This document shows positions 14,262 to 63,165 of a stretch of DNA of 64,000 nucleotides, in pieces. The position numbers and the translations under genes were made by a program. Source of the DNA: Isurus oxyrinchus (lineage: Eukaryota); assembly GCA_026770705.1 (NCBI GenBank), contig JANJGN010000323.1:558001-622000 (forward strand), given 5' to 3'. The notes beneath the pieces are model-generated. The model saw only the letters and a list, made by a program, of their open reading frames with translations, ran no database searches and was not told where the DNA came from. Position 1 is the stretch's first letter. Each line of letters opens with the position of its first letter.

Positions 14262-14439
14262 CATCTTTATTATAAATGTTATTTAAAAATAGTGATCACA
14301 CAAGCCTGGTTTCTAAGGAACTGAAACTGCAAATAATTTACAGCATAGTGAAACGTACAGGAATAATCTATTTTGAGCTGATGATATATAATTATACATG
14401 AGGCATGTTGCTAATTTCAAACATCATCTGAAATATGGC

Positions 14440-15000: not shown

Positions 15001-15074
15001 CTCAATGGGGCGAGTCCATCCGCATTTTGAGCTGAAAACTTGAGATGGTCTCAAAACCCCAACCTTCCATCTCA

Positions 15075-15646: not shown

Positions 15647-16159
15647 ATTCTGACTGAGCCGAGTTCACAGTTTCACACGTTGCTAGGGACCATTTTTCCG
15701 CCTCTCTGTCAGACGGTGTGTATCTGACAGCAGGTCAGGCAGAAATAGTCCAGAATGCACTGTGGTTTTGTAGCATTGAAACAACGACATGAACTAAATG
15801 AGTGCTGCACCAAATAAAGACATGGAGTTACCACACCAAAAAACCACGTGACTTCCCCAGTTTCACATCTCCCTCAAACACAGAAAAACTGGGTTAACAC
15901 TGACCCTCCTCCCAGAGCCAGTTCACCTCGTGTCCGATGCAGTCAGGAGAGGAAGATCATCTCTCCTCCGATCCTGGTAAACTGAACATTTCCAGAATTA
16001 GATCAGCTCCCTGAAGTGTCTCCAGTTAGACATTCATCTGACAGGATTGACTCTACAACCCTGGGGACTCATTCTCCTGTAAGTAAAACACTTGCTGCTC
16101 CTGTCAAATCTCTTCTGTACAGCATGGTCTCTGGATGTCCCAGAACACTTTACAGTTGA

Positions 16160-16398: not shown

Positions 16399-17164
16399 AA
16401 TATTGGACTAATCTCCAGGCGAGGTTGGCTGGATGGATTATTGACAAGGTCCATTCACCCTGTAAAGAGTTTCTCTGGTTTGAAATACCCAATCAAACAT
16501 CGAGTTCTGTGTCTAAACCTTGTGTTGAAAAGACACCTTTCCAGCTCTTCACCTGCCATTAGCTTGTTGAGTCTTCACACGCTCCGTCTGTCCGTGACCA
16601 ACCCCTCTTAGCTCATCCTTTCCTTGTCGTACATCGAGCTGTTCATCCTGACGGGTTCCCTCCTTCCCAGTAACACTCCAACTCCGACATCAAACTAACT
16701 CCCAACACGTTGATGAATTGTATGGATTCCAGCGTCAGTTGGTTCTGTCTGAGGCTGTTTCTCTGATCGGGGACCGAGCTGTTCTGAACGGACATTGTGT
16801 TCAGCAGTTCTTATTGCAGATCAGGCTGTTCAACCAATGCTGCTGTTCACTGAGGTGACTCCGATTCTACATTCACACATTAATGATCTCATGTCCAGCA
16901 GCAAACATCTGAATGAAGCCAGGTTCAAGAAAAATCCCAGCTGCTTGATCCGACAGTTATCTGTTCAGGCATGGCCCCTTGTTCCAAATAACAAACATTA
17001 TTTAAAAATAGTCATCACATGAGCCTGGTTAACAAGGAAATGAAACCATGAACAATTTGCAGTGAAGTGAAACGTACAGGACTAATCTATTTATATTGAG
17101 CTGATGATTTAGAATGTTACACGAGGCATGTTGCTAATTTCAAACATCATGTGAATTACGGCAG

Positions 17165-17702: not shown

Positions 17703-20700
17703 GCCCATTCAGTCCCTTGAGCCTTTTACTCAGGAACAGCAGGTGGCCCATTCAGGCGCTCGATCCTGTTATGCAGGAAGAGGAGGATGCCAATTCATCT
17801 CCATGTACCTGTTACATAGGAACAGGAGGAGGACCATTCAGCCCCTCGAGCCTGTTACACAGGAACAGGAGGAGGACCATTCAGCCCCTCGAGCCTGTTA
17901 ACAGGAAAAGGAGGAGGCCCATTCAGCCCCTCGAGCCTGTTACACAGGAACAGGAGGCCCATTCAGCCCCTTGAGCCTGTTACACAGGAACAGGAGGAGG
18001 CCCATTCAGCCACACAAACCGGTTACACGAGAACTGGAGGAGGCCTAGTTAGCCTCATGAGCCTGTTACACAGGAACAGGAAGAGACACATTCAGCCCCT
18101 CAAGTCTCTTAGATAGGAACCGGTGGAGGCCCATTCAGCTCCCTCGATCCTTTTACACAGAAACAGGAGGAGGCCCATTTTGTTCACTTGGGCCTGTTAC
18201 ACAGGAACACGAAACCCATTCAGTCCCATCAAGCTTGTTTCAAGCAAAGAGGAGGAAGCCCACTCAGCCCCTCGAGGCTTTTACACAAGAACAAGTGGAG
18301 GCCCACTCAGCCCCTCAACCCTGTTACACAGGAACAGGAGAACCATTCATTCCCTCAAGCCTGTTATGCAGGAACAGGAGGAGGCCCTTTCAGTCCCAGG
18401 AGCCTGTTACACAGGAACAGGAGGAGGCCCATTCTGTTCACTAAAGCCGGTAACAGGAACACGAGACCCATTCAGCCCCTCAACCCTGTTACACAGGAAC
18501 AGGAGGAGGCCCACTCAGCCCCTCGAGACTTTTGCACAAGAACATGTGGAGGTCCACCCAGCCCTCAAACATGTTACACAGTAACAGGAGAACCATTCAT
18601 TCCCTCGAGCCTGTTACACAGGAACAGGAGGAGGCCCATTCAGTCCCTCAAGCCTGTTTCACAGGAACATGAGGAGGCCCATTCAGTCCCTCCAGCCTGT
18701 TACACACGAACAGGAGGAGGTCCGTTCAGTCCCTCAAGCCTGTTACACACGAACAGGAGGAGGCCCATTCCGCCCCTCGAGCCTGTTACACAGGAACAGG
18801 AGGAGGCCATTCAGCCCCTCAAGCATGTTAGATACGAACAGGTGGAGCTCCATTCAGCCCCCTTGAGCCTGTTACACAGGAACAGGAGGAGGCCCATTCA
18901 GCCCCCTTGAGCCTGTTACACAGGAACAGGAGGAGGCCCATTCAGCCCTCGAGCATGTTACACAGGAACAGGAGGAGGCCCATTCAGCCCCTCGAGCCTG
19001 TTACACAGGAACAGGAGGAGGCCCATTCAGCCCCTCGAGCCTGTTACACAGGAACAGTAAGACACCCATTCAGCCCCTGAAGCCTGTTATAGAGAAAAGC
19101 CGGAGGCCCATTCGGCCCCTCGAGCATGTTACACAGGAACAGGAGGAAGTCCATTCAGCCCTCTCGATCCTTTCACGCAGGAACAGGTGGAGGCCCATTC
19201 TGTTCTTTGGGGCCTGTTACACAGGAGCTTGAGACCCATTCAATCCCATCAAGCATGTTACACAGGAACTGGAGTAGGCCCCTTCAGCCCCTCAAGCTTG
19301 TTTCAAGAGAAGAGGAGGAGGCCCATTCAGCCCCTCGAGGCTTTTACACAAGAACAAGTGGAGGCCCACTCAGCCCCTCAACCCTGTTACACTGGAAAAG
19401 GAGGAGGTCCATTCAGCCACATGAGCCTGTTACTTGTGAACAGAAGCAGGCTCACCAAGATCCTCGAGCCAGTTTCACAGGAACAGGAGGAGGCCCATTC
19501 AGTCTCTTGAGCCTGTTACACAGGAACAAGACGAAGCCCATTCAGCCCCTCAAGCCTGTTACACAGGAACAGGAGGAGGCCCATTCATTCCCTCGAGCCT
19601 GTTACACAGGAACAGGAGGAGGCCCATTCAGTTCCTCAAGCTTGTTGTAATAGAAGAGGAGGAGGCCTACTCATCCAAACGAGGCTTTTACACAAGAACA
19701 AGTGGAGGTCCACTCAGTCCCTCAATCCTGTTACACAGTAACAGGACAACCATTCATTCCCTCAAGCCTGTTACACAGGAACAGGAGGAGGCCCCATTCA
19801 GCCCCCTCAAGCCTGTTACCCAGGAACAGGAGGAGGCCCATTCAGCCCCTCGAGCCTGTTACACAGGAACAGGAGGAGGCCCATTCAGCCCCGCAAGCCT
19901 GTTACACAGCAACAGGAGAAGGCCCATTCAGCCCCTCAAGCTTGTTTCAGGAGAAGAGGCGGAGTCCCACTCAGAGCCTCGAGGCCTTTACACAAGAACA
20001 ACTGGAGGAACACTCAGCCTCTCAATCCTGTTACACAGTAACAGGAGAACCATTCAGCCCCTCGAGCCTGTTTCAAAAGAACAGGAGGAGGCCCATTTGT
20101 CTCCATGAACCTGTTACTCAGGAAAAGGAGGAGGCCCATTTGCCTCATGAGCCTGTTACACAGGAACAAGTGGAGGTCCACTTAGCCCCTCAACCATGTT
20201 ACACAGTAACAGGAGAACCATTCATTTCCTCGAGACTGTTACACAAGAACAGGAGGAGGCCCATTCAGCCCCTCGAGCCTGTTACACAGGAACAGCACAA
20301 CCATTCATTCCCTCGAGACTGTTACACAGGAACAGGAGGAGGCCCATTCAGTCCCTCGAGTCTATTACACAGGAACAGGAAGAGGCCCATTCAGTCCCCT
20401 TGAACCTGTTACACAGGAACAGGAGGAGGCCATTCAGCCCCTCAAGCCTGTTACACAGGAACAGGAGGAGGCCCATTCAGCTCCTCAAGCTTGTTGTAAT
20501 AGAAGAGGAGGAGGCCTACTCATCCAAACGAGGCTTTTTCACAAGAACAAGTGGAGGTCCATTCAGCCTCTCAGCCCTGTTATACAATAACAGGAGAACC
20601 ATTCTTTCCCTCAAGCCTGATAAACAGGAACAGGAGGAGGCACATTCAGCCCCTCGAGCCTGTTACACAGGAACAGGACAACCATTCATTTCCTCGAGAC

Positions 20701-23700
20701 TGTTACACAGGAACAGGAGGAGGCCCATTCAGCCCGTCGAGCCTGTTACACAGGAACAGGACAACCATTCATTTCCTCGAGTCTGTTACACAGGAACAGG
20801 AGGAGACCCATTCAGCCCCTCGAGCCTGTTACACAGGAACAGGAGGAGGCCCATTCAGTCCCCTTGAACCTGTTACACAGGAACAGGAGGAGGCCCATTC
20901 AGCCCCTCAAGCCTGTTACACAGGAACAGAAGGAGGCCCATTCAGCCCCCTCGAGCCTGTTACACAGGAACAGGAAGAGGCCCATTCAGTCCCCTTGACC
21001 CTGTTACACAGGAAAAGGAGGAGGCCCATTCAGCCCCTCAAGCCTGTTACACAGGAACAGGAGGAGGCCCATTCAGCTCCTCTAGCCTGTTACACAGGAA
21101 CAGGAGGAGGCCCATTCAGCTCCTCAAGCTTGTTGTAATAGAAGAGGAGGAGGCGTACTCATCCAAATGAGGCTTTTACACAAGAACAAGTGGAGGACCA
21201 CTCAGCCCCTCAACCCTGTTACACAATAACAGGAGAACCATTCAATCCCTCAAGCCTGATACACAGGAACAGGAAGAGGCCCATTCAGCCCCTCAAGCCT
21301 GTTACACTGGACCATGAGGAGTCTCATTCATTCCCTCAAGCCTGTTACACAGTAACAGGAGAACCATTCATTCCCTCGAGCCTGTTACACAGGAACAGGA
21401 GGAGGCCCATTCAGCCCCCTCGAGTCTGTTACACAGGAACAGGAGGAGGCCCATTCAGCCCCTCAACCCTGTTACACAGGAACAGGAAGAGGCCCATTCA
21501 GCCCCCTCGAGCCTGTTACACAGGAACAGGATGAGGTCCATTCAGCCCCTCGAGCCTGTTTCAAAAGAACAGGAGGAGGCCCATTCGTCTCCATGAACCT
21601 GTTACTCAGGAACAGGAGGAGGCCCATTTGCCTCATGAGCCTGTTACACAGGAACAAGTGGAGGTCCACTTAGCACCTCAACCATGTTACACAGTAACAG
21701 GAGAACCATTCAGTCCCTCGAGTCTGTTACACAGGAACAGGAGGAGGCCCATTCAGTCCCCTTGACCCTGTTACACAGGAACAGGAGGAGGTCCATTCAG
21801 CCCCTCAAGCCTGTTACACAGGAACAGGAGGAGGCCCATTCAGCCCCTCAAGCCTGTTACACAGGAACAGGAGGAGGCCCATTCAGCTCCTCAAGCTTGT
21901 TGTAATAGAAGAGGAGGAGGCCTACTCATCCAAACGAGGCTTTTACACAAGAACAAGTGGAGGCCCACTCAGCCCCTCAACCCTGTTACACAGTAACAGG
22001 AGAACCATTCATTCCCTCAAGCCTGTTATACAGGAACAGGAGAACCATTCATCCCCTTGACCCTGTTACACAGGAACAGGAGGAGGCCCATTCAGCCCCT
22101 CGAGCCTGTTACACAGGAACAGGAGGAGGCCCATTCAACCCCCTCGACCCTGTTACACAGGAACAAGAAGAGGCCCATTCAGCCCCCTCGAGCCTGTTAC
22201 ACAGGAACAGGATGAGGTCCATTCAGCCCTTCGAGCCTGTTTCAAAAGAACAGGAGGAGGCCCATTCGTCTCCACGAACCTGTTGCTTAGGAACAGGAGG
22301 AGGCCCATTTGCCTCATGAGCCTGTTACACAGGAACAAGTGGAGGTCCACTTAGCCCCTCAACCATGTTACACAGTAACAGGAGAACCATTCATTTCCTC
22401 GAGACTGTTACACAGGAACAGGAGGAGGCCCATTCAGCCCCTCGAGCCTGTTACACAGGAACAGCACAAACATTCATTCCCTCGAGACTGTTACACAGGA
22501 ACAGGAGGAAGCCCATTCAGTACCTCGAGTCTGTTACACAGGAACAGGAAGAGGCCCATTCAGTCCCTCGAACCTGTTACACAGGAACATGAGACCCATT
22601 CAATCCCATCAAGCTTGTTACACAGGAACTGGAGGAGGCCCATTCAGCCCCTCAAGCTTGTTTCAGGAGAAGAGGCGGAGTCCCACTCAGCCCCTCGTGG
22701 CTTTTACACTGGAACAAGTGGAGGACCACTCAGCCCCTCAAACCTGTTACACAGGAACAGGAGAGCCATTCATTCCCGCGAGCCTGTTACACAGGAACAG
22801 GAGGAGGTCCATTCAGTCCCTCAAGCCTGTTACACAGAAACAGGAGGAGGCCCATTCAGCCCCCTCGAGCTTGTTACACAGGAACAGGAGGAGGTCCATT
22901 CAGCCCCCCTGAGACTGTTACACAGGAACAGGAGGAGGCCATTCAGCCCCTCAAGCCTGTTACACAGGAACAGGAGGAGGCCCATTCAGCTCCTCAAGCT
23001 TGTTGTAATAGAAGAGGAGGAGGCCTACTCATCCAAACGAGGCTTTTACACAAGAACAAGTGGAGGTCCATTCAGCCCCTCAGCCCTGTTACACAATAAC
23101 AGGAGAACCATTCTTTCCCTCAAGCCTGATACAGAGGAACAGGAGGAGGCCCATTCAGCCCCTCGAGCCTGTTACACAGGAACAGGACAACCATTCATTC
23201 CCTCGAGACTGTTACACAGGAACAGGAGGAGGCCCATTCAGCCCCTCAAGCCTGTTACACAGGAACAGGAGGAGGCCCGTTCAGTCCCTCGAGCCTGTTA
23301 CACAGGAACAGGAGGAGGCCCATTCAGCCCCCTTGAACCTGTTACACAGGAACAGGAAGAGGCCCATTCAGTCCCCTTGACCCTGTTACACAGGAACAGG
23401 AGGAGGCCCATTCAGCCCCTCAAGCCTGTTACACAGGAACAGGAGGAGCCCCATTGAACCCCTCGAGCCTGTTACACAGGAACAGGAGGAGGCCCATTCA
23501 GTCCCTCGAACCTGTTACACAGGAACATGAGACCCATTCAATCCCATTAAGCTTGTTACACAGGAACAGGAGGAGGCCCATTCAGCCCCCTCGAGCTTGT
23601 TACACAGGAACAGGAGGAGGCCCATTCAGCCCCCCTGAGACTGTTACACAGGAACAGGAGAACCATTCAGTCCCTCGAGACTGTTACACAGGAACAGGAG

Positions 23701-26700
23701 GAGGCCCATTCAGTCCCTCGACCCTGTTACACAGGAACTGGTGGAGGCCCATTCTGTTCGTTGGGGCCTGTTACTCAGGAACATGAGACCCATTAAGTCT
23801 CATCAAGCATGTTACACAGGAACTGGAGTAGGCCCCTTCAGCCCATCAAGCTTGTTTCAAGAGAAGAGGTGGAAGCCCACTCAGCCCCTCGAGGCTTTTA
23901 CACAAGAACAAGTGGAGGTCCACTCAGCCCCTCAACCCTGTTACACAGTAACAGGAGAACCATTTATTCCCTCAAGCCTGTTATGCAGGAACAGGAGGAG
24001 GTCCATTCAGCCCCCTCGAGCCTGTTACACTGGAACAGGAGGAGGCCCATTCAGCTCCCCTCGAGCCTGTTACACTGGAACATGAGGAGGCCCATTCAGC
24101 CCCCTCGAGCCTGTTACACAGGAACAGGAGGAGGTCCATTCAGCCCCTCAAGCCTGTTACACAGGAACAGGAGGAGGTCCATTCAGCCCCTCAAGCCTGT
24201 TACACAGAAACAGGAGGAGGCCCATTCAGCCCCTCAAGCCTGTTACACAGGAACAGGAGGAGGTCCATTCAGCCCCCTCGAGCTTGTTACACAGGAACAG
24301 GAGGAGGTCCATTCAGCCCCCCTGAGACTGTTACACAGGAACAGGAGGAGGCCATTCAGCCCCTCAAGCCTGTTACACAGGAACAGGAGGAGGCCCATTC
24401 AGCTCCTCAAGCTTGTTGTAATTGAAGAGGAGGAGGCTTACTCATCCAAACGAGGCTTTTACACAAGAACAAGTGGAGGTCCATTCAGCCCCTCAGCCCT
24501 GTTACACAATAACAGGAGAACCATTCTTTCCCTCAAGCCTGATACACAGGAACAGGAGGAGGCCCATTCAGCCCCTCGAGCCTGTTACACAGGAACAGGA
24601 CAACCATTCATTCCCTCGAGACTGTTACACAGGAACAGGAGGAGGCCCATTCAGCCCCTCGAGCCTGTTACACAGGAACAGGACAACCATTCATTCCCTC
24701 GAGACTGTTACACAGGAACAGGAGGAGGCCCATTCAGCCCCTCGAGCCTGTTACACAGGAACAGGAGGAGGCCCGTTCAGTCCCTCGAGCCTGTTACACA
24801 GGAACAGGAGGAGGCCCATTCAGCCCCCTTGAACCTGTTACACAGGAACAGGAAGAGGCCCATTCAGTCCCCTTGACCCTGTTACACAGGAACAGGAGGA
24901 GGTCCATTCAGCCCCTCAAGCCTGTTACACAGGAACAGGAGGAGGCCCATTCAGCCCCTCAAGCCTGTTACACAGGAACAGGAGGAGGCCCATTCAGCTC
25001 CTCAAGCTTGTTGTAATAGAAGAGGAGGAGGCCTACTCATCCAAACGAGGCTTTTACACAAGAACAAGTGGAGGCCCACTCAGCCCCTCAACCCTGTTAC
25101 ACAGTAACAGGAGAACCATTCATTCCCTCAAGCCTGTTATACAGGAACAGGAGAACCATTCATCCCCTTGACCCTGTTACACAGGAACAGGAGGAGGCCC
25201 ATTCAGCCCCTCGATCCTGTTACACAGGAACAGGAGGAGGCCCATTCAACCCCCTCGACCCTGTTACACAGGAACAAGAAGAGGCCCATTCAGCCCCCTC
25301 GAGCCTGTTACACAGGAACAGAATGAGGTCCATTCAGCCCCTCGAGCCTGTTTCAAAAGAACAGGAGGAGGCCCATTCGTCTCCACGAACCTGTTACTTA
25401 GGAACAGGAGGAGGCCCATTTGCCTCATGAGCCTGTTACACAGGAACAAGTGGAGGTCCACTTAGCCCCTCAACCATGTTACACAGTAACAGGAGAACCA
25501 TTCATTTCCTCGAGACTGTTACACAGGAACAGGAGGAGGCCCATTCAGCCGCTCGAGCCTGTTACACAGGAACAGCACAAACATTCATTCCCTCGAGACT
25601 GTTACACAGGAACAGGAAGAGGCCCATTCAGTCCCTCGAACCTGTTACACAGGAACATGAGACCCATTCAATCCCATCAAGCTTGTTACACAGGAACTGG
25701 AGGAGGCCCATTCAGCCCCTCAAGCTTGTTTCAGGAGAAGAGGCGGAGTCCCACTCAGCCCCTCGTGGCTTTTACACTGGAACAAGTGGAGGACCACTCA
25801 GCCCCTCAACCCTGTTACACAGGAACAGGAGAGCCATTCATTCCCGCGAGCCTGTTACACAGGAACAGGAGGAGGTCCATTCAGCCCCTCGAGCCTGTTA
25901 CACAGAAACAGGAGGAGGCCCATTCAGCCCTGTCGAGCTTGTTACACAGGAACAGGAGAGCCATTCATTCCCGCGAGCCTGTTACACAGGAACAGGAGAA
26001 GGTCCATTCAGCGCCTCTGAGACTGTTACACAGGAACAGGAGAACCATTCAGTCCCTTGAGACTGTTACACAGGAACAGGAGGAGGCCCATTCAGCCCCC
26101 CTGAGACTGTTACACAGGAACAGTAGAACCATTCTTTCCCTCAAGCCTGATACACCGGAACAGGAGGAGGCCCATTCAGCCCCTCGAGCCTGTTACACAG
26201 GAACAGGAGGAGGTCCATTCAGTCCCTCAAGCCTGTTACACAGAAACAGGAGGAGGCCCATTCAGCCCCCTCGAGCTTGTTACACAGGAACAGGAGGAGG
26301 CCCATTCAGCCCCCCTGAGACTGTTACACAGGAACAGGAGAACCATTCAGCCCCTCGAGCCTGTTACACAGGAACAGGAGGAGGCCCATTCAGTCCCTCG
26401 ACCCTGTTACACAGGAACTGGTGGAGGCCCATTCTGTTCGTTGGGGCCTGTTACTCAGGAACATGAGACCCATTAAGTCTCATCAAGCATGTTACACAGG
26501 AACTGGAGTAGGCCCCTTCAGCCCATCAAGCTTGTTTCAAGAGAAGAGGTGGAAGCCCACTCAGCCCCTCGAGGCTTTTACACAAGAACAAGTGGAGGTC
26601 CACTCAGCCCCTCAACCCTGTTACACAGTAACAGGAGAACCATTTATTCCCTCAAGCCTGTTATGCAGGAACAGGAGGAGGTCCATTCAGCCCCCTCGAG

Positions 26701-29700
26701 CCTGTTACACAGGAACAGGAGGAGGTCCATTCAGCCCCCTCAAGCCTGTTACACTGGAACAGGAGGAGGCCCATTCAGCCCCCTCGAGCTTGTTACACAG
26801 GAACCGGAGGAGGCCCATTCAGTCCCTCAAGCCTGTTACACAGAAACAGGAGGAGGCCCATTCAGCCCCCTCGAGCTTGTTACACAGGAACAGGAGGAGG
26901 TCCATTCAGCCCCCCTGAGACTGTTACACAGGAACAGGAGGAGGCCATTCAGCCCCTCAAGCCTGTTACACAGGAACAGGAGGAGGCCCATTCAGCTCCT
27001 CAAGCTTGTTGTAATAGAAGAGGAGGAGGCCTACTCATCCAAACGAGGCTTTTACACAAGAACAAGTGGAGGTCCATTCAGCCCCTCAGCCCTGTTACAC
27101 AATAACAGGAGAACCATTCTTTCCCTCAAGCCTGTTACACAGGAACAGGAGGAGGCCCATTCAGCCCCTCGAGCCTGTTACACAGGAACAGGACAACCAT
27201 TCATTCCCTCGAGACTGTTACACAGGAACAGGAGGAGGCCCATTCAGCCCCTCGAGCCTGTTACACAGGAACAGGAGGAGGCCCGTTCAGTCCCTCGAGC
27301 CTGTTACACAGGAACAGGAGGAGGCCCATTCAGCCCCCTTGAACCTGTTACACAGGAACAGGAAGAGGCCCATTCACTCCCCTTGAGCCTGTTACACAGG
27401 AACAGGAGGAGGCCCATTCAGCCGCTCAAGCCTGTTACACAGGAACAGTAGGAGGCCCATTCAGTCGCTCGAGCCTGTTACACAGGAACTGGAGGAGGCC
27501 CATTCAGCCCCTCAAGCTTGTTTCAGGAGAAGAGGCGGAGTCCCACTCAGCCCCTCGTGGCTTTTACACTGGAACAAGTGGAGGACCACTCAGCCCCTCA
27601 AACCTGTTACACAGGAACAGGAGTGCCATTCATTCCCGCGAGCCTGTTACACAGGAACAGGAGGAGGTCCATTCAGTCCCTCGAGCCTGTTACACAGGAA
27701 CAGGAGGAGGCCCATTCAGTCCCTCGAGTCTGTTACACAGGAACAGGAGGAAGCCCATTCAGCCCCCTCGAGCCTGTTACACAGGAACAGGAAGAGGCCC
27801 ATTCAGTCCCCTTGACCCTGTTACAAAGGAACAGGAGGAGGCCCATTCAGCCCCTCAAGCCTGTTACACAGGAACAGGAGGAGGCCCATTCAGCCCCTCA
27901 AGCCTGTTACACAGGAACAGGAGGAGGCCCATTCAGCCCCTCAAGCCTGTTACACAGGAAAAGGAGGAGGCCCATTCAGCCCCTCAAGCCTGTTACACAG
28001 GAACAGGAGGAGGCCCATTTGCCTCATGAGCCTGTTACACAGGAACAAGTGGAGGTCCACTTAGCCCCTCAACCATGTTACACAGTAACAGGAGAACCAT
28101 TCAGTCCCTCGAGTCTGTTACACAGGAACAGGAGGAGGCCCATTCAGCCCCTTGACCCTGTTACACAGGAACAGGAGGAGGCCCATTCAGTCCCCTTGAC
28201 CCTGTTACACAGGAACAGGAGGAGGTCCATTCAGCCCCTCAAGCCTGTTACACAGGAACAGGAGGAGGCCCATTCAGCTCCTCAAGCTTGTTGTAATAGA
28301 AGAGGAGGTGGCCTACTCATCCAAACGAGGCTTTTACACAAGAACAAGTGGAGGCCCACTCAGCCCCTCAGCCCTGTTACACAGTAACAGGAGAACCATT
28401 TATTCCCTCAAGCCTGTTATACAGGAACAGGAGAACCATTCAGCCCCTCGATCCTGTTACACAGGAACAGGAGGAGGCCCATTCAACCCCCTCGACCCTG
28501 TTACACAGGAACAAGAAGAGGCCCATTCAGCCCCCTCGAGCCTGTTACACAGGAACAGGATGAGGTCCATTCAGCCCCTCGAGCCTGTTTCAAAAGAACA
28601 GGAGGAGGCCCATTTGTCTCCACGAACCTGTTACTTAGGAACAGGAGGAGGCCCATTTGCCTCATGAGCCTGTTACACAGGAACAAGTGGAGGTCCACTT
28701 AGCCCCTCAACCATGTTACACAGTAACAGGAGAACCATTCATTTCCTCGAGACTGTTACACAGGAACAGGAGGAGGCCCATTCAGCCCCGCGAGCCTGTT
28801 ACACAGGAACAGCACAAACATTCATTCCCTCGAGACTGTTACACAGGAACAGGAGGAAGCCCATTCAGTACCTCGAGTCTGTTACACAGGAACAGGAAGA
28901 GGCCCATTCAGTCCCTCGAACCTGCTACACAGGAACATGAGACCCATTCAATCCCATCAAGCCTGTTACACAGCAACAGGAGGAGGCCCATTCAGCCCCT
29001 CAAGCTTGTTTCAGGAGAAGAGGCGGAGTCCCACTCAGCCCCTCGTGGCTTTTACACTGGAACAAGTGGAGGACCACTCAGCCCCTCAAACCTGTTACAC
29101 AGGAACAGGAGAGCCATTCATTCCCGCAAGCCTGTTACACAGGAACAGGAGGAGGTCCATTCAGTCCCTCAAGCCTGTTACACAGAAACAGGAGGAGGCC
29201 CATTCAGCCCCCTCGAGCTTGTTACACAGGAACAGGAGGAGGTCCATTCAGCCCCCCTGAGACTGTTACACAGGAACAGGAGGAGGCCATTCAGCCCCTC
29301 AAGCCTGTTACACAGGAACAGGAGGAGGCCCATTCAGCTCCTCAAGCTTGTTGTAATAGAAGAGGAGGAGGCCTACTCATCCAAACGAGGCTTTTACACA
29401 AGAACAAGTGGAGGTCCATTCAGCCCCTCAGCCCTGTTACACAATAACAGGAGAACCATTCTTTCCCTCAAGCCTGATACACAGGAACAGGAGGAGGCCC
29501 ATTCAGCCCCTCGAGCCTGTTACACAGGAACAGGACAACCATTCATTCCCTCGAGACTGTTACACAGGAACAGGAGGAGGCCCATTCAGCCCCTCGAGCC
29601 TGTTACACAGGAACAGGAGGAGGCCCGTTCAGTCCCTCAAGCCTGTTACACAGGAACAGGAGGAGGCCCATTCAGCCCCCTTGAACCTGTTACACAGGAA

Positions 29701-32243
29701 CAGGAAGAGGCCCATTCAGTCCCCTTGACCCTGTTACACAGGAACAGGAGGAGGCCCATTCAGCCCCTCAAGCCTGTTACACAGGAACAGGAGGAGGCCC
29801 ATTCAGCCCCTCGAGCCTGTTACACAGGAACAGGAGGAGGCCCATTCAGTCCCTTGAACCTGTTACACAGGAACATGAGACCCATTCAATCCCATCAAGC
29901 CTGTTACACAGGAACTGGAGGAGGCCCATTCAGCCCCTCAAGCTTGTTTCAGGAGAAGAGGCGGAGTCCCACTCAGCCCCTCGTGGCTTTTACACTGGAA
30001 CAAGTGGAGGACCACTCAGCCCCTCAACCCTGTTACACAGGAACAGGAGAACCATTCTTTCCCTCAAGCCTGATACACAGGAACAGGAGGAGGCCCATTC
30101 AGCCCCTCGAGCCTGTTACACAGGAACAGGAGGAGGTCCATTCAGTCCCTCAAGCCTGTTACACAGAAACAGGAGGAGGCCCATTCAGCCCCCTCGAGCC
30201 TGTTACACAGGAACAGGAGGAGGCCCATTCAGCCCCCCTGAGACTGTTACACAGGAACAGGAGAACCATTCAGTCCCTCGAGACTGTTACACAGGAACAG
30301 GAGGAGGCCCATTCAGTCCCTCGACCCTGTTACACAGGAACTGGTGGAGGCCCATTCTGTTCGTTGGGGCCTGTTACTCAGGAACATGAGACCCATTAAG
30401 TCTCATCAAGCATGTTACACAGGAACTGGAGTAGGCCCCTTCAGCCCATCAAGCTTGTTTCAAGCAAAGAGGAGGAAGCCCACTCAGCCCCTCGAGGCTT
30501 TTACACAAGAACAAGTGGAGGTCCACTCAGCCCCTCAACCCTGTTACACAGTAACAGGAGAACCATTCATTCCCTCAAGCCTGTTATGCAGGAACAGGAG
30601 GAGGTCCATTCAGCCCCCTCGAGCCTGTTACACAGGAACAGGAGGAGGTCCATTCAGCCCCCTCAAGCCTGTTACACTGGAACAGGAGGAGGCCCATTCA
30701 GCCCCCCTCGAGCCTGTTACACTGGAACCGGAGGAGGCCCATTCAGTCCCTCGAGCCTGTTACACAGGAACAGGAGGAGGCCCATTCAGTCCCTCGAGCC
30801 TGTTACACAGAAACAGGAGGAGGTCCATTCAGTCCCTCAAGCCTGTTACACAGAAACAGGAGGAGGCCCATTCAGCCCCCTCGAGCTTGTTACACAGGAA
30901 CAGGAGGAGGTCCATTCAGCCCCCCTGAGACTGTTACACAGGAACAGGAGGAGGCCATTCAGCCCCTCAAGCCTGTTACACAGGAACAGGAGGAGGCCCA
31001 TTCAGCTCCTCAAGCTTGTTGTAATAGAAGAGGAGGAGGCCTACTCATCCAAACGAGGCTTTTACACAAGAACAAGTGGAGGTCCATTCAGCCCCTCAGC
31101 CCTGTTACACAATAACAGGAGAACCATTCTTTCCCTCAAGCCTGATACACAGGAACAGGAGGAGGCCCATTCAGCCCCTCGAGCCTGTTACACAGGAACA
31201 GGACAACCATTCATTCCCTCGAGACTGTTACACAGGAACAGGAGGAGGCCCATTCAGCCCCTCGAGCCTGTTACACAGGAACAGGAGGAGGCCCATTCAG
31301 CCCCTCGAGACTGTTACACAGGAACAGGAGGAGGCCCATTCAGCCCCTCGAGCCTGTTACACAGGAACAGGTGGAGGCCCGTTCAGTCCCTCGAGCCTGT
31401 TACACAGGAACAGGAGGAGGCCCATTCAGCCCCCTTGAACCTGTTACACAGGAACAGGAAGAGGCCCATTCACTCCCCTTGACCCTGTTACAGAGGAACA
31501 GGAGGAGGCCCATTCAGCCCCTCAAGCCTGTTACACAGGAACAGGAGGAGGCCCATTCAGTCGCTCGAGCCTGTTACACAGGAACTGGTGGAGACCCATT
31601 CAGCCCCTCAAGCTTGTTTCAGGTGAAGAGGCGGAGTCCCACTCAGCCCCTCGTGGCTTTTACACTGGAACAAGTGGAGGACCACTCAGCCCCTCAACCC
31701 TGTTACACAGGAACAGGAGAGCCATTCATTCCCGCAATGCTGTTACACAGGAACAGGAGCAGGTCCATTCAGCCCCCTCGAGCTTGTTACACAGGAACAG
31801 GAGGAGGCCCATTCAGTCCCTCGAGCCTGTTACACAGGAACAGGAGGAGGCCCGTTCAGCCCCCTTGAGCCTGTTACACAGGAACAGCAGGAGGTCCATT
31901 CAGCCCCTCAACCCTGTTACACAGGAACAGGAGGAGGTCCATTCAGTCCCTCAAGCCTGTTACACAGAAACAGGAGGAGGCCCATTCAGCCCCCTCGAGC
32001 TGGTTACACAGTAACAGGAGGAGGTCCATTTAGTCCCAGGAGCCTGTTATACGGGAACAAGAGGAGGCCCATTCAGCCCCCTCGAGCCTGTTGCACAGGA
32101 ACAGGAGGAGGCCCATTCATCTCCCTGAACATGTTACACAGGAACAGGAGGCCCATTCAGCCCCTTGCCCCTCTGACACAGGAACAGGAGGCCCATTCAG
32201 CCCCTTGCCCCTCTGACACAGGAACAGGAGGAGGCCCATTCAG
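17703..32243. repeat. ~14.5-kb satellite of a ~43-bp unit (CCTGTTACACAGGAACAGGAGGAGGCCCATTCAGCCCCTCGAG) with higher-order structure
   Basis: Several hundred tandem 40-44-bp units; variant blocks recur at kb spacing. Confidence 0.97.
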
Positions 32244-32790
32244 CAGTCCCTCAGAACTGACACTCTGACAGTGCGGCACTCCCTCAGTACTGACAATCTG
32301 ACAGTGCAGCACTCCCTCAGTACTGACCTTCCGACAGTGCAGCACTCCCTCAGTACTGACCCTCTGACAGTGCAGCACTCCCTCAGTACTGACCTTCCGA
32401 CAGTGCAGCACTCCCTCAGTACTGACCGTCTGACAGTGCAGCACTCCCTCAGTACTGAACCTCTGACCGTGCAGCGCTTCCTCAGTACTGACCCTATGAC
32501 AGTGCAGCACTCACTCAGTACTGACCTTCTGACAGTGCAGCACTCCCTCAGTACTGACCCTCTGACAGTGCAGCACTCCCTCAGTACTGACCCTCTGACA
32601 GTGCAGCCCTCTCTCAGTACTGACACTCTGACAGTACAGCCCTCTCTCAGTATTGACCATACGACAGTGCAGCATTCCCTCAGTACTGACCCTCTGACAG
32701 TGCAGCACTGCCTCAGCACTGACCCTCTGACAGTGCAGCACTGCCTCAGTACTGACCCTCTGACAATGCAGCACTCCCTCAGCACTCCCT
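32244..32790 (-). repeat. 33-bp minisatellite array, right flank of the large satellite
   Basis: Same unit and orientation as 17165-17702. Confidence 0.95.
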
Positions 32791-34529: not shown

Positions 34530-34745
34530 ACTGCCTCAGTACTGATACTCCGAACGTCCAGCACACCATCAGTACTGACCATCAGACAGTGCAGCACTCC
34601 CTCATTACTGACCCACCGACAGTCCAGCACTCCCTCAGTACTGACCCTCTGACATTGCAGCACTCCCTCAGTACTGACCCTCCGACAGTGCAGCACTCCC
34701 TCAGTACTGATCTTCCAACAGTGCAGCACTCCCTCAGCACTCCCT
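34530..34745 (-). repeat. Short 33-bp minisatellite array
   Basis: Same unit; starts the block duplicated from ~14.8-15.8 kb. Confidence 0.9.
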
Positions 34746-35494
34746 CACTGGGGCGAGTCCATCCGCATTTTGAGCTGAAACCTTGAGATGGTCTCAAAAC
34801 CCCAACCTTCCATCTCGGAGAGAGAGAGTGCGTTTGTGTGAGAGAGAGAGACAATGTATGTGTGAGAGACTGAGAGTGTGTATGTGTGAGAGAGCAAAAG
34901 AGAGTTAGAGTGTGTGTGCATGAGAGAGGGAGGTAGCTTGTGTGTGTAAGAGAGAGAGCGTGTGTGAGAGAAAGAGAATGTCTATGTGAGAGTGAGAGTG
35001 AGTTTATCTGTGAGAGATAAAGGTAATGAGAGAATGTGTGTGTGAGATAGTGTGTTTGTGAAAGAGCGTGTGTGTGATAGTGTGTTTGTGTATGTGAGAG
35101 TGTGTGTGTGAGATCGTGTGTGTGTGTGTTTGAGAGAGGGTGTGTGTGTTTGAGAGAGAGGGTGATTGTGCGTTTGAGAGAGGGAGTGAGAGAGAACATG
35201 TGTGTGAGAGAGAGTGTGCGTGTGTATGTGTGTGCGTGAAAGAGAAAGTGTTTGTGCAAAAGAGTGTGTGTTTGAGAGTATGTGTGCATGTGTGAGTGTG
35301 CATCTGTGTGTGTGTGTGTGTGTGTGTGCATTCTGACTGAGCCGAGTTCACAGTTTCACACGTTGCTAGGGACCACTTTTCCACCTCTCTGTCAGACTGT
35401 GTGTATCTGACAGCAGGTCAGGCAGAAATAGTCCAGAATGCGCTGTGGTTTTGTAGCATTGAAACAACAACATGAACTAAATGAGTGCTGCACC

Positions 35495-35553
35495 ACTATC
35501 AGTGTGTGGCAGAGAATGAGCGTTGGAGGGATTTATAACCATCTCTGTAGAAC
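35495..35553 (+). pseudogene. Gene 2: 3' remnant of a C2-set exon
   Basis: actatcagtgtgtggcagagaatga...atttataaccatctctgtagaac|gtgagt matches the end of the C2 exons (YQCVAENE...FITISVE); no acceptor, internal deletion. Confidence 0.8.
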
Positions 35554-35594
35554 GTGAGTTACACAGAATTGAACATTCTCTCGTTGTTAGCTCA

Positions 35595-36816: not shown

Positions 36817-36913
36817 GGCGAGATTCCAATGAATGGAAAGCAGGATTGCTTGGAGCTGGAATCTGTTTGAGTGTTGGACTGAGTGGATTCTTCATCTTCA
36901 AGTGTGTGAGAAA
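36817..36913 (+). CDS. Gene 2: transmembrane exon
   Basis: tttacag acceptor, GTAAGT donor, 97 nt like the gene 1 TM exon; RDSNEWKAGLLGAGICLSVGLSGFFIFKCVRK. Confidence 0.85.
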
Positions 36914-37224
36914 GTAAGTGTGAAGCTTTAATTGGTTGTTTTTGAAAATGTTTTCTTCAACCTTCTCTCCTTATAGAAAGAATTTGCATTTCTATAGCAC
37001 CTTTCACAACCCAAAACCCTTCACAGCCCCTGAAGAGCTTTGATGTTCAACCACTATTGAACATCTCATCCTACACTCCCTGTTTGACAACGCAGTCCTG
37101 TAACTGGCAGTGTTGACCCGGACCATAAAATACCCTGTGACCCCTTGAGGATGTGAAAGGTGCTATATAAATGAAAACCTTTCTTTCGTTAGTGCATGCA
37201 ATCTCATTCCATTTTCCATGTTTC

Positions 37225-37380
37225 ATTCACTCTCTCTTATCTCCACTAATGCTCTCCTCTCATTCTCTCTCTCATTCACTCTCTCTCTAATCTCCAATAA
37301 TGCTCTCCTTCTCATTCTCTCTCTCATTCACTCTCTCTCAAATCTCCACTAATGCTCTCCTTCTCATTCTCTCTCTCGTC
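37225..37380. repeat. Short CT-rich tandem repeat (~43-45 bp, 3-4 copies)
   Basis: cattcactctctct...atctccactaatgctctcc repeated. Confidence 0.75.
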
Positions 37381-37669
37381 CTCTTACACATTGTTCAGTA
37401 TCTCACATTTTTAAGGAGCGCTGAGCAACATCTGCTCCTTCAGAAGATCCACCTCAACATCTGGACTGAGCAGTGAATTGAAACTCGCTCAACGACTGTT
37501 CAGCTTTACACAGGAATCACGTCACAGAGTCAGGACACAAAGGGTTAACAGATAGTTTACAACACAACACTAAGGCCCTACGTTTCAATGAAAGGGTTTT
37601 CACAATTGTTCCCCAATTCCTGATTTTGTCTCACAGAGACACATCAACCCTTTCTCATTAAATACACAG

Positions 37670-37754
37670 AGGCAGCAGCACAGGAAGAGGTCATTCAGCC
37701 CAAGCAGAGCGTGTGGGCAGTTCCTCCCCAGGCGAGCAGTCGGACAGGTCCTGG
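37670..37754 (+). CDS. Gene 2: putative cytoplasmic exon 1 (85-nt shared exon)
   Basis: tacacag acceptor, TGG|GTAAGT donor; 1+84 nt gives the phase 2 to 0 bridge the gene needs; (K)GSSTGRGHSAQAERVGSSSPGEQSDRSW. Confidence 0.6.
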
Positions 37755-37954
37755 GTAAGTAACGGAACGATTGGAATTCACTTCCACCACCAACACCGTC
37801 CTTTGTTGATGTTGTGACTTTATAAAGACAGATTCCAATGATTGATGCCTTTGAAAGGTTTCTACTGATTATTGAGATCTGGGTGTGAGGCTCAAGTCTG
37901 TTGTACAGAACATCTTTCTGGTTAAATTATGCAGACAGGTTACACACAGTCTAC

Positions 37955-38197
37955 GATTATATTCCCTCGGGTCTAGAAGATTAAGGAGTGATCTAACTGA
38001 GGGGTTCAAAATGATTAAACACTCGATAGGGTCGATAGAGAGAAGCTATTCCCTCGGGTGGGGGTGGGTGGTGGGGGTCGGGTGAAGTCCAGAACAAGGG
38101 GGCTGGAACTTCAGATTGGAGCCAGGCCGTTCAGGGGTGATGTCAGGAAGCACTTCTTCACACAAAGGGGAGTGGAAATCTGGAACTCTCTCCCCAG
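37955..38197 (+). mobile_element. CR1 LINE 3' fragment
   Basis: LYSLGSRRLRSDL...; TRGLELQIGARPFRGDVRKHFFTQRGVEIWNSLP. Confidence 0.85.
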
Positions 38198-38265
38198 TGA
38201 TCAAACCCAACACCGAATACACATCATGTTGATTGTCACTCTGTCCATTTCCATCTCTATTACAG

Positions 38266-38370
38266 AAGAGAGGCGAGGGGAAAGCAGGAATCAAATCGAA
38301 CCACCGTGTTGATGAATATCGAGGTCCTGTTTATGAAAACTGTGAGCGTGGTTGGGCTTTGAGGAATCAG
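38266..38370 (+). CDS. Gene 2: cytoplasmic exon 2 (YENC)
   Basis: Pyrimidine tract + tacag acceptor, CAG|GTGAGT donor, phase 0/0; KRGEGKAGIKSNHRVDEYRGPVYENCERGWALRNQ. Confidence 0.75.
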
Positions 38371-39723: not shown

Positions 39724-39840
39724 AAGAAAGATGAGAAGGATCTGGAAATGAAATCTAACCGCGGAGTCAATCCTGATACAGATGATGATCTTTACGCAAA
39801 CTGTGAATTTGCCAAGGATTCTGTTTATGGGAATTTATAA
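39724..39840 (+). CDS. Gene 2: terminal cytoplasmic exon (YANC, SVYGNL*)
   Basis: ctattacag acceptor, phase 0; KKDEKDLEMKSNRGVNPDTDDDLYANCEFAKDSVYGNL*, with acidic residues before the tyrosines as in kinase substrate sites. Confidence 0.82.
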   Translation, partial: KKDEKDLEMKSNRGVNPDTDDDLYANCEFAKDSVYGNL

Positions 39841-42215: not shown

Positions 42216-42231
42216 ACCACTTCCTCATTTT
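42216..42231 (-). promoter_or_regulatory. PU.1/ETS-type site at putative promoter A (also ~44428, ~57663, ~63110)
   Basis: ccacttcctcatttt = AAAATGAGGAAGTGG just upstream of the shared exon; degenerate (aattcctgatttt) in the gene 2 copy. Confidence 0.5.
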
Positions 42232-42273
42232 GTCTCACAGTGACACATCAACCCTTTCTAATTAAACACACAG

Positions 42274-42358
42274 AGGGAGCAGCACAGGAAGAGGTCATTC
42301 AGCCCAAGCAGAGCGTGTGGGCAGTTCCTCCCCAGGCGAGCAGTCGGACAGGTCCTGG
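42274..42358 (+). other. Module A: putative 5' non-coding exon (85-nt shared exon; 5' boundary uncertain)
   Basis: Near-identical to 37670-37754, GTAAGT donor, upstream of a leader exon. Confidence 0.6.
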
Positions 42359-42801
42359 GTAAGTAACGGAACGATTGGAATTCACTTCCACCACCAACAC
42401 CATCCTTTGTTGATGTTGTGACTTTATAAAGACAGATTCCAATAACTGATGCCTTTGAAAGATTTCTACTGATTATTGAGATCTGGGTGTGAGGCTCAAG
42501 TCTGTTGTACAGAACATCTTTCTAGCTCAAGGGATGAGGGAAGAGCAGGGACATGAGCTTTGGGGTGTCCTGAGCAGGTGAAAGGCGATATAGAAATGCA
42601 AGTCCTTCATTGTTTTACTTTCTTAAAGCCTTGTAACTCTCTGCAGAGCACATATCATCCCACAGAGAATGAAATTAGTCTGTGAAGACATTGTCTAAAA
42701 GCAGTTCTGATCTCTCGAGAGGTGTCGGACAAGAGGTGAGGTCTCATTAACTCATTTCTCTTTCACAGCTTGAGAACCAATGAAATACCTGGGAGTGGAC
42801 A

Positions 42802-42841
42802 ATGATCAGGAAATCTTACTTCCTCCTGTCACTTCTCCAAG
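42802..42841 (+). CDS. Module A: signal-peptide exon (alternative or orphan leader)
   Basis: Acceptor at 42768; MIRKSYFLLSLLQ+G|GTAATA, phase 1; out-of-frame upstream ATG at 42780. Confidence 0.65.
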
Positions 42842-44200: not shown

Positions 44201-44483
44201 TGGGGAGTTTCAGTCTACTCTGTGGGGCAGACGTCCCCTGAATGGGGTCTTGAACCCCACAACGTTCTGACCCCCTGAATTTGGCTGTGAAACCCACTGA
44301 CCCACAGGAGAAATTCCTGGTCAATGACTGTCCACCTGTGAGCAGAAATATCACCACAGGGTCAGGACACAAAGGGTTAACAGTTTACCAAGATCTCAAA
44401 ACATGAGCTGCTCTGTCACTTTGATCCAACTTCCTCATTTTGTCTCAAAGTGACACATCAACCCTTTCTAATTAAACACACAG

Positions 44484-44568
44484 AGGGAGCAGCACAGGAA
44501 GAGGTCATTCAGCCCAAGCAGAGCGTGTGAGCAGTTTCTCCCCAGGCGAGCAGTCGGACAGGTCCTGG
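44484..44568 (+). other. Gene 3 / module B: putative 5' non-coding exon
   Basis: Copy of the 85-nt exon, GTAAGT donor. Confidence 0.6.
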
Positions 44569-45018
44569 GTAAGTAACGGAACGATTGGAATTCACTTCCA
44601 CCACCAACACCGTCCTTTGTTGATGCTGTGACTTTATAAAGACAGATTCCAATGATTGATGCCTTTGAAAGATTTCTACTGATTATTGAGATCTGGGTGT
44701 GAGGCTCAAGTCTGTTGTACAGAACATCTTTCTAGCTCAAGGGATGAGGGAAGTGCAGAGACATGAGCTTTGGGATATCCTGAGCAGGTGAAAGGTGCTA
44801 TAGAAATGCAAGTCCTTCATTGATTTATTTTTTTAAAGGTTTTTAACTCTCTGCAGAGCACCTATCATCCCACAGAGAACCAAATTAGTCTGTGAAGACA
44901 TTGTCTAAAAGCAGTTCTGATCTCTCGAGAGCTGTCGGACAAGAGGTGAGGTCTCATTAACTCCTTTCTCTTTCAGAGTTTGAGAGTCAGAAGCTAAAGG
45001 AATATCTGGGAGAGGACA

Positions 45019-45058
45019 ATGATCGGGAAATCTTACTTCCTCCTGTCACTTATCCAAG
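45019..45058 (+). CDS. Gene 3 (activating Siglec-like): signal-peptide exon
   Basis: MIGKSYFLLSLIQ+G|GTAATA; joins the V exon in frame (…LIQVGLSQEW). Confidence 0.75.
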
Positions 45059-51254: not shown

Positions 51255-51623
51255 TTGGACTGTCACAAGAATGGGAAAGTAACACTCCACGAGAGGTGAC
51301 AGCGCAGAAAGGTTCATGTGTACAGATTCCATGTCATTACAATTACCCATCACATTTGTTAGAGAAAACACATGTCGGAATCTGGAATATGAGGAGGGAC
51401 AAATGGAATACATTGTCTATAGCCTTTCACTCCAAGGATCACAGTCACGAGTTATCACGGTTCCACCATCGGACCCGGCTGTCTGGAGACCTGAAAGATG
51501 GCGACTGTTCCCTGATTATAAACAACATCAGACGGGAAGATGCAGGATTTTTTTTTTTCAGAATAGAATTTGACAATGGTCGGAGCCATAACTATTACCC
51601 TGAAACCCTGCTTCAGGTTTCTG
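51255..51623 (+). CDS. Gene 3: Siglec V-set exon
   Basis: ccccag acceptor, GTAAGT donor, 369 nt, phase 1/1; GSCVQIPC (two Cys), GDCSL (E-strand Cys) and EDAGFFFFRIE (Arg in the F strand, no canonical Cys) are Siglec hallmarks. Confidence 0.95.
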
Positions 51624-55507: not shown

Positions 55508-56100
55508 GGGAGCCCATTCAGCCCATTGAGTCCATGCTGCCTCTCTGTAGAGCAATCCAGTCAGTCCCATTTCCCCGCTCTATCCCCATATCTCTGCAAG
55601 TTTATTTCCCCTCAAGTATCCATCCAATTTCCATTTGATATCGTTCATCGTCTCAACTTCCACCATCCTCGTAGGCAGCGAGTTCCAGCTCATTACCACT
55701 CGCTGTGTAAAAAAGTTCCTCCTCACATCCCCCTCTGCCCAAAACCTTCAATCTGTGTCCCCCAGTCCTTGTACCATCAGCTAATGGCAACAGCTTCTCT
55801 TTGTCTACCGTATCTAAACCCATCATCATCTTGTACACCTCGATCAGATCCCCCCTCAATCTCCTTTGCTCCAAGGAGAACAACCCCAGCTTCTCCAACC
55901 CAACCCTGTAGCTAAAATCCCTCATCCCTGGACCCATTCTGCTCAATCTCCTCCCCACCCTCTCAAGGACCATCACTTCCTTCCCAAAGTGAGGAGACCA
56001 GAACTGGACACAATACTCTAGTTGTGACCTAACCAGAGCTTTATACATGTTCAGCATAACCTCCCTGTGTTTGTACTCAGTCCCTCGATTTATGAAAAGC
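55508..56100 (-). mobile_element. CR1 LINE 3' fragment in the gene 3 3'UTR region
   Basis: YKALVRSQLEYCVQFWSP...LGLFSLEQRRLRGDLIEVYK; ends in gggctgaatgggctcc. Confidence 0.92.
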
Positions 56101-56453
56101 TTATTCTTTCCATCAGCACAAACAGCAATTTCCAAGCGGACTCCCATCAGCAGACAGAGTGCAATGAAACATCGGCATGCCTGCTTCTTAATGTACGGAG
56201 AGAAACCTGGAACGAGAGATTCTCCTTCTTCTCCTCAGCAAGCTGAAACTTTTCCTTATACCTGGTGCTCCCCAGTCCTGCTGTGTGGACACATCATAAC
56301 CACGGCATTGTCTGGCTGTGTGCAGCCAACATGGTCGAATAGGAATGAACAGAAATGTGACGTTGCTAAACTCTGTTCTTTGATTGGAATGTGCTTTCTG
56401 AATGCTGCACCTTTTTCATGCTGCGATCGATTGTAAGAAGCATTTGGGTTATG

Positions 56454-57500: not shown

Positions 57501-58137
57501 TTTTTAAATATAAACCCTCAGAGCCATGGTAGAAATTTGAAGTTAACAAACAGCAAACAGAAAGATCACAGAGTCATGATGAATTGCCAACAGTTTGATT
57601 CTGTTGTAACGCATTGTGAAATTACGCACTCATTCCTACTGCCTGTTTACTCACTCCTTTACTACTTCCCCATTTTGTCTCACAGAGACACATCAACCCT
57701 TTCTCATTAAACACACAGAGGGGCCAGCACAGGAAGAGGTCATTCAGCCCAAGCAGAGCGTGTGGGCAGTTCCTCCCCAGGCGAGCAGTCGGACAGGTCC
57801 TGGGTAAGTAACGGAACGATTGGAATTCACTTCCACGACCAACACCGTCCTTTGTTGATGTTGTGACTTTATAAAGACAGATTCCAATGATTGATGCCTT
57901 TGAAAGATTTCTACTGATTATTGAGATCTGGGTGTGAGGCTCAAGTGTGTTGTACAGAACATCTTTCTAGCTCAAGGGATGAGGGAAGTGCAGAGACATG
58001 AGATTTGGGGGCGTCCTGAGGTGGTGAAAGGTGCTATAGAAATGCAAGTCTTTCATTGTTTTTCTTTTTCAAGCCTTGTAACTCTCTGCAGAGCACCTAT
58101 CATCCCACAGAGAATCAAATTAGTCTGTGAAGACATT

Positions 58138-58775: not shown

Positions 58776-59109
58776 ATTGTCTAAAAGCAGTTCTGATCTC
58801 TGGAGAGCTGTCGGACAAGAGGTGAGGTCTCATTAACTCCTTTCTCTTTCACAGCTTGAGAGTGAGAAGCTGATGAAATATCTGGGAATGGACAATGATC
58901 TTACTTCCTCCTGTCAGTTCTCCAAGCTAATATCATCGTCAGCTCGGACAGATTTATGGTTAATAGTCTTTGTAAAAGATCATTCTTATTGAGCTGTGAT
59001 TGGGAACCGATTCAGCAGTGAGCCAGTGTACAAACTCACACCAAGTCCCATTCACCCATCACCCCTGTGATCACTGATATTCACTGACTCCCTGTCTGAC
59101 AGCAACAGA

Positions 59110-62872: not shown

Positions 62873-63165
62873 TGGGGAATTTCAGTCTGCACTGTGGGGC
62901 AGGCATCTGCTGAATGGGGTCTTGAACCCCACAAAATTCTACAACATACTGACTCCCTGAGTTCGGGTGTGAAAACCACTTACCCACAGGAGAAACTCCT
63001 GGTTAATGAGTGTCCATCAGTGAGCAGAAATATCACCACAGGGTCAGGATACAACGGGTTAACAGTTCACCAGCATCTCAAAACATGAGCTGCTCTGTTA
63101 CTTTGATCCAACTTCCTCATTTTGTCTCACAGTGACACATCAACCCTTTCTAATTAAACACACAG

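Follow-up and report, generated by a model that had tools for sequence, protein, structure and literature searches.

The closest described counterpart of the exon reported here is the hybrid first-internal exon, in which one exon sequence takes both first and internal roles (Mick et al. 2024, PMC11797052). According to the accessible text of that report, transcription starts near the 3′ splice site, the gain of a transcription factor site or of a splice site switches the role, and most human hybrid first exons derive from internal exons. The hybrid exons described there are single genomic exons used in different transcripts, whereas in the shark each role mostly has a copy of its own, and the two copies, one non-coding and the other coding, often share a gene, across hundreds of genes. 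A second counterpart is the SIGLEC11/SIGLEC16 pair of primates (PMC5701461, in the sections available), which likewise belongs to a Siglec cluster, undergoes conversion that recurs per lineage and shows relaxed constraint on the converted exons. There, however, conversion joins like parts (the ligand-binding region), whereas in the shark a 5′ exon is paired with a cytoplasmic coding exon. Our literature search, which took in few subscription papers, turned up no account of this exon or of how shark Siglec genes are built, and no paper on this family or its expansion in sharks; a whale shark paper names Siglecs once (PMC8455134).

In a cluster of shark Siglec genes we directly observe two splice patterns of an 85-nt exon, two classes of copy, a tract of near-identity that joins them, and fused loci; the dual use of the exon is real and family-wide. 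In the reading that we consider likely, this exon and its flanks would occupy two places: ahead of the leader exon in nearly every gene, as a putative PU.1-driven first exon whose start site and PU.1 binding are both predicted, and in one subfamily as the coding linker between the transmembrane (TM) exon and the tail. Repeated gene conversion would have kept both kinds of copy alike since early in shark history, before the main shark lineages split. The arrangement is a clean case of a single sequence under two unrelated jobs in the same genes, apparently homogenised for a very long time.

An 85-nt exon in two splice contexts

The window, by which we mean the whole 64,000-nucleotide stretch analysed (C323:558001-622000, in a genome of 4.98 Gb), lies within a head-to-tail array of intact and broken Siglec genes, as seen in a map of the region. 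The Siglec-type V-set exon at 51255-51623 (all features are on the + strand unless stated) matches shark Siglec-like proteins in a protein search, the nearest being those of Cetorhinus and Carcharodon at 80-81%. It exceeds the cut-off for both Pfam V-set and Ig_CD22, and its top PDB matches are sialoadhesin, MAG, Siglec-5, Siglec-8 and CD33. In this one V exon an arginine aligns with the arginine of the F-strand FR motif of sialoadhesin, which we take to be the sialic acid contact residue, so that a binding role is predicted only. Genes of the cluster also encode C2-set domains, one membrane segment and a tail with tyrosine motifs; by domain make-up they belong to the Siglec family, with predicted sialic acid binding. 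Leader-type units number at least 413, on contigs such as C52, C71, C121, C150, C189 and C323, which suggests that Siglecs have expanded here to several hundred genes and fragments.

Annotated CD33-related, CD22 and MAG-like Siglecs of sharks share with the cluster genes a V-set domain, C2-set domains, a membrane segment, a short bridge exon and a tyrosine-motif tail. The tail-type subfamily differs from these in using the 85-nt exon as its bridge and in its YxN-rich tail exons; the YxN and C-terminal ITIM-like motifs, taken in their usual meanings, are carried by the tyrosine exons. On the same contig as the window, a gene of the sister (TM1) subfamily (G000:C323:633668-644500, loci L078 and L079) has four tandem pairs of bridge and ITIM tail exons, resembling the repeated tails in Carcharodon models.

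The coding copy of the exon belongs to the second gene of the window, which is headless: between the last exon of the first gene and the TM exon it has no V-set or C2-set exon of its own, bar a 62-base scrap from the 3′ part of an Ig exon (35495-35556) that marks its 5′ break point. Intact paralogues exist, with whole genes at 6 of 15 loci carrying the TM exon of this tail-type subfamily (TM2), and the module defined below is present twice in each. The TM2 exon at 36817-36913, identified from proteins and splice joints, is followed by the 85-nt bridge exon (37670-37754, phase 2 to 0), which by its joints and an orthologous peptide encodes a 28-residue juxtamembrane linker, lacking tyrosine in the window copy. 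Tail exon A (38266-38370, phase 0-0, supported by joints and sequence) carries a YEN motif and duplicates the start of tail exon B; the latter, at 39724-39840, is the last coding exon, with YAN and C-terminal SVYGNL motifs, placed from its sequence and from a contig loose end behind 38370.

A preliminary description of this DNA had singled out the 85-nt exon as the bridge between the TM and tail exons. When 36914-38265 was scanned for open phase 2 to 0 exons that start after CAG or TAG and end at GT(A/G)AG, four candidates emerged, all ending at the 37754 donor, and the 85-nt form had the best pyrimidine tract among them. Both junctions that the description had predicted are present in transcript contigs. 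These come from 4 of 21 listed runs (X1, X5, X6 and X7, with two organism labels and from four studies), consist of contigs that we guess to be RNA, and pool paralogues, so that the joints prove splice patterns at the level of the family, with paralogues indistinguishable. The joint 36913>37670, of the GT..AG type, occurs in X5 and X7 (two of the four runs). The joint 37754>38266 is present in X5 and is matched by loose ends in X1, and joints from the exon to a leader exon occur in X5 and X6. Thus the proposal of one exon in two splice contexts holds, as a coding bridge (joints and annotated proteins) and as an exon spliced to a leader (joints). In run X1 the TM exon is also joined directly to tail A (36913>38266), with the 85-nt exon left out; judging by the sequence, the resulting frameshift ends the tail ahead of any tyrosine.

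The phase 2 to 0 bridge exon of the TM1 subfamily (3612-3693) served as a comparator and has no DNA likeness to the 85-nt exon; a common origin of the two is unsupported, as 102 of 1000 shuffles score as high. At window position 37750, 8 of 14 tail copies carry C>A versus 1 of 42 5′ copies, a change that creates a tyrosine close to the linker end; the same variant is found in Carcharodon P0102.

Near-identity of the two kinds of copy

The five copies of the exon that the preliminary description placed at 37670, 42274, 44484, 57719 and 63166 are all correctly positioned, each 85 nt long with a GTAAGT donor at its end. The exon sits within a larger shared module, which in its tail-type form (37613-37919) comprises a degenerate ETS site, two acceptors, the exon, its donor and 165 intron bases, and which is 96-97% identical to the 5′ copies: over about 305 aligned bases, identity to 42217-42523, 57666-57968 and 63108-63415 is 96.7-97.1%. 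The unit around 44484 aligns with the tail copy from 37489 onward, at 86.8%. The shared tract has a sharp 3′ edge at 37919/37920. Farther upstream, 37480-37560 retains an older homology to the upstream flanks of the 44484 and 63166 copies (local alignment scores of 80 and 62, against shuffle maxima of 34 and 36), including a GGGTTAAC box at 37542 that is found in four of the five window copies. This weaker homology reaching up to 37480 would be the trace of an older, longer duplication. Elsewhere in the window, 15880-16100 holds a GGGTTAAC box and a possible small exon, with a second occurrence at C323:423045, behind another TM1-type gene.

The two classes extend across the genome. Of 813 first-look candidates from a DNA search, 40 were scored; 30 loci were retrieved, and every one has the order TM2, module, tail A. 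A sample of 1,047,723 bases on four contigs, picked around known tail copies, contains 63 modules: 42 of 5′ type, 14 of tail type, one TM-to-leader fusion and six others. The module lies ahead of 44 of the 46 leaders in this sample and behind all 15 TM2 exons, versus none of 17 TM1 exons. The tail and 5′ roles are divided between different genomic copies, not combined in one exon serving both. Exact two-anchor patterns matched genome-wide at 413 leader-type, 60 tail-type and 11 tail-to-leader loci and at one tail copy bearing a PU.1 site (controls: 0), counts that are lower bounds, may include uncollapsed haplotypes and do not represent independent events.

Within the exon, tail and 5′ copies are at a distance of 0.027, and within the intron part at 0.024, not above the distance within the 5′ copies; the 5′ copies differ among themselves by 0.093 in the downstream flank and by 0.365 just upstream of the tract, where distances span 0.37-0.49. 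Over 37626-37919, both classes are polymorphic at 14 alignment columns and no column is a fixed difference, with class differentiation returning at the PU.1 site and at 37920. The tract is thus more alike than its flanks and has shared polymorphisms, the pattern of concerted evolution. A tree of the copies has five label changes between roles, and a single tail clade is not rejected (AU p 0.155). Stop and frameshift counts (4 of 42 5′ copies vs 0 of 14 tail copies, Fisher p 0.56) and the ratio of nonsynonymous to synonymous distinct variants (4:1 in tail copies, 22:6 in 5′ copies) give no signal of selection on the tail frame. The exon presumably tolerates conversion in either direction because it is mostly devoid of ATG and encodes a loosely constrained spacer.

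The exon peptide is the juxtamembrane tail segment of annotated Siglecs in six shark orders, following the TM segment in Cetorhinus, Carcharodon, Scyliorhinus, Mustelus, Chiloscyllium, Hemiscyllium, Rhincodon, Stegostoma, Heterodontus, Pristiophorus and Heptranchias. A profile of 12 shark peptides run over 127 proteins found it in none of the 16 ray proteins, whose tails mostly have a bridge resembling, by eye, the sister TM1 exon; two Mobula proteins have a tail-B-like end segment with a different bridge. The 5′ role is also seen outside the window species. In Carcharodon P0033 the exon is joined to a leader, annotated read-through isoforms of Cetorhinus include a 5′ copy whose peptide is identical in one frame to that of the window 5′ copy, and Heptranchias P0084 contains the exon at both ends, its N-terminal copy being frame-shifted and ahead of the V domain. 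A search with the out-of-frame 5′ peptide of P0038 returned lamniform proteins only, and the tail part of the Heptranchias protein, compared against 50% representatives, gave two matches, both from sharks; a metagenome scan for leader exons from other shark species found none.

The Heptranchias 5′ copy differs by one base change from its own tail copy and by three to six from five lamniform tails; lamniform 5′ copies differ from the Heptranchias tail by four or five changes and the window 5′ copy from the window tail by none, with shuffles at 17 or more. We note that the evidence for a 5′ copy outside the lamniform sharks, and with it this comparison, comes from one predicted protein, which may be mis-joined, and that the fewest-change counts, derived from peptides, are lower bounds. 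Hexanchiform and lamniform sharks stand on opposite sides of the deepest split among living sharks, at least about 250 million years ago. The shared polymorphisms, the lack of fixed differences and the Heptranchias pattern together argue for an old two-role arrangement homogenised by gene conversion, although slow shark evolution accounts for part of the likeness, as the identical Cetorhinus 5′ peptide shows. One might instead suppose that a recent duplication in the lineage of the window produced the likeness without long-term conversion, as an identity of 97% that extends through the intron and the unrejected tail clade would allow; we regard this as very unlikely given that both roles occur in Cetorhinus and Carcharodon models and apparently in Heptranchias, that tail and 5′ copies share polymorphisms, and that an older, more diverged homology lies upstream of the tract. 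Gene conversion within an old duplication is the better reading of the near-identity, in preference to any recent event.

The 5′ copies as putative PU.1-driven first exons

A PU.1-like site, ACTTCC(T/C)C, precedes 40 of 42 5′ copies and none of the 14 tail copies. The preliminary description held that the fifth copy, at 37670, had lost the PU.1 core. Its PU.1 flanks do differ, but the ETS core (TTCC/GGAA) is retained, as in all 14 tail copies: at 37615-37622 on the - strand the site reads AATTCCTG on the + strand, only two base changes from ACTTCCTC. Among the four 5′ copies of the window, the consensus is exact in three, at 42219-42226 for the exon at 42274-42358, at 44429-44436 for the exon at 44484-44568, and at 63111 for the exon at 63166-63250; the copy at 57719-57803 has ACTTCCCC at 57664, short of the full consensus. 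The same description had these four lying behind such a site and ahead of a leader exon. Their positions stand, but two of the four units are broken or orphaned. The leader behind 57719 (58855-58926) has an 8-base deletion and a dead donor, and that behind 42274 (42769-42841) is intact and is followed by the next module, into which it splices, with no V exon in between. The leader exons at 44977-45058 (ATG at 45019; supported by a joint of the 42358>44977 type) and 63653-63734 (intact) complete the set.

As far as the available portions of the two sources go, the PU.1 consensus is centred on GAGGAAGT (bioRxiv 10.1101/288795) and TATA-less, purine-rich promoters are typical of myeloid genes (PMC3561417); the shark 5′ exons have a GAGGAAGT consensus close by, as a PU.1-type myeloid promoter does. 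The exon copies have no ATG in 51 of 56 cases. We think it likely that the 5′ copies are the non-coding first exon of most genes, with PU.1 as the predicted driver, a role that we infer because contigs cannot show start sites. Contig depth (in X5, 178 for exon>leader vs 48.9 for TM>exon) and the missing cover just upstream of the exon in X5 and X6 were set aside as signs of a start site, as neither can rank parts.

The acceptor is intact in 41 of 42 5′ copies, and in X1 and X7 leader exons are joined to the module at both acceptors, one of which is the upstream alternative CAG at 37634-37636 that would introduce a stop in the tail frame. Some 5′ copies are thus entered by splicing and do not always come first. 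Taken on their own, the 5′ copies, which receive splices from upstream exons, may qualify as true hybrid exons. Since these copies retain working acceptors, read-through transcripts can splice a gene to the next, and the read-through chimeras between neighbours that had been suggested earlier are indeed found, both as leader>module joints and as annotated Cetorhinus isoforms. The module thereby explains chimeric gene models within shark annotations.

Such joints, together with the Cetorhinus isoforms that reach the 5′ copy from upstream exons and the high divergence among 5′ copies of the flanks upstream of 37613 (distance 0.365), could also mean that the 5′ copies are internal 5′UTR exons, or relics of whole-unit duplication, with the promoter further upstream and a non-functional PU.1 match. 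We find this distinctly unlikely: the consensus is kept in 40 of 42 5′ copies right at the edge of the converted tract, it differs from the site in all 14 tail copies though neighbouring bases mix freely, and the cluster map has no common upstream exon.

One tail-type copy, L160 (G000:C1130:118029), has a PU.1 consensus after a short upstream deletion or conversion and is the leading candidate for an internal promoter in front of the tail exons. A search for tail-only genes arising by a deletion that joins promoter, module and tail gave a single match to the exact pattern, which was this TM2 tail copy with its PU.1 site.

Fusion loci and the direction of the first duplication

All 11 tail-to-leader fusion loci matched genome-wide by the exact pattern read TM2, module, leader. 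Locus C323:440261 shares the tail context as far as the tract end and, from the tract start onward, the context of the 42274 copy, the arrangement that we would expect from a crossover between a tail copy and a 5′ copy. The fusions may have come from as few as two events, because 10 of the 11 share one leader type. Splicing into the leader exon, read from the sequence, brings a stop within five codons, and the product of a fusion is predicted to be a receptor without tyrosine exons. Neighbouring genes are likely fused by crossing over at these copies, with unequal crossover between tail and 5′ copies giving rise to the fused loci. This gives a concrete account of how genes may be born, fused and truncated in a shark Siglec cluster that numbers hundreds.

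The SIGLEC14/SIGLEC5 fusion allele reportedly arises in a similar manner, when near-identical tracts cross over and neighbouring Siglec genes fuse. There, 5′ tract is said to pair with 5′ tract in a working swap, whereas the shark fusions pair a tail with a 5′ tract, lose the tyrosine exons and join the membrane exon to the next leader. One may go further and propose that the module is a selected, family-wide joint at which ectodomains and tails were shuffled by crossover and read-through splicing throughout shark history, possibly seeded by a LINE 3′ end. We judge this rather unlikely; were it true, direct repeats, one at the first exon and one in the tail, would bracket tail-type receptors and live acceptors would front every gene while several hundred Siglecs diversify.

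As to which role came first, we lean slightly towards a first duplication from the 5′ end to the tail, in which promoter and first exon would have been copied into the intron behind the TM exon, replacing an older bridge exon. We do so because homology to the promoter flank lies within the tail intron, because the 5′ role is universal and the tail role confined to one subfamily, because the module exon bears no relation to the bridge of the sister subfamily, and because the module peptide is absent from the 16 ray proteins, whose bridges resemble the sister exon by eye. Conversion blurs both direction signals. The opposite course, in which the 5′ copy derives from an ancient coding exon of the tail (duplicated once early on or independently in several lineages), the upstream intron of that exon gained a PU.1 site and an old first exon was replaced, is a possibility to be taken seriously, if a doubtful one. 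It would account for the acceptors kept in 41 of 42 5′ copies, for an open frame of exact phase 2 to 0, and for a coding role in six shark orders; it needs only the two changes from AATTCCTG to ACTTCCTC, and internal-to-first is the commoner path in mammals according to the accessible text of PMC11797052. However, it also requires spread to TM1-type genes (44 of 46 leaders have the module), and it must contend with an exon unrelated to the sister bridge and missing from those ray proteins.

Several repeats touch the module. Within the exon, 25 of 27 bases at 37676-37702 match a dispersed motif with 331 exact copies, the match stopping at 27 bases. At several loci this motif lies at the antisense end of a LINE-like ORF, presumably CR1, and it resembles the unit of a 43-base satellite; the exon may thus hold an old retroelement scrap. 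The LINE-like ORF in the window, at 55653-56234, was not named by Pfam. In four of the six modules of the sample outside the 5′, tail and fusion types (C71:1112601, C189:382931, C52:1012617 and C52:820977), the 43-base satellite runs directly into the exon at a shared CATTCAGCCC stretch, which removes the PU.1 site and the acceptors. The window itself contains a 14.5 kb array of this satellite at 17703-32244, flanked by a duplicated segment (14279-15812 vs 16998-17164 and 34738-35495) and by the break point of the headless gene.
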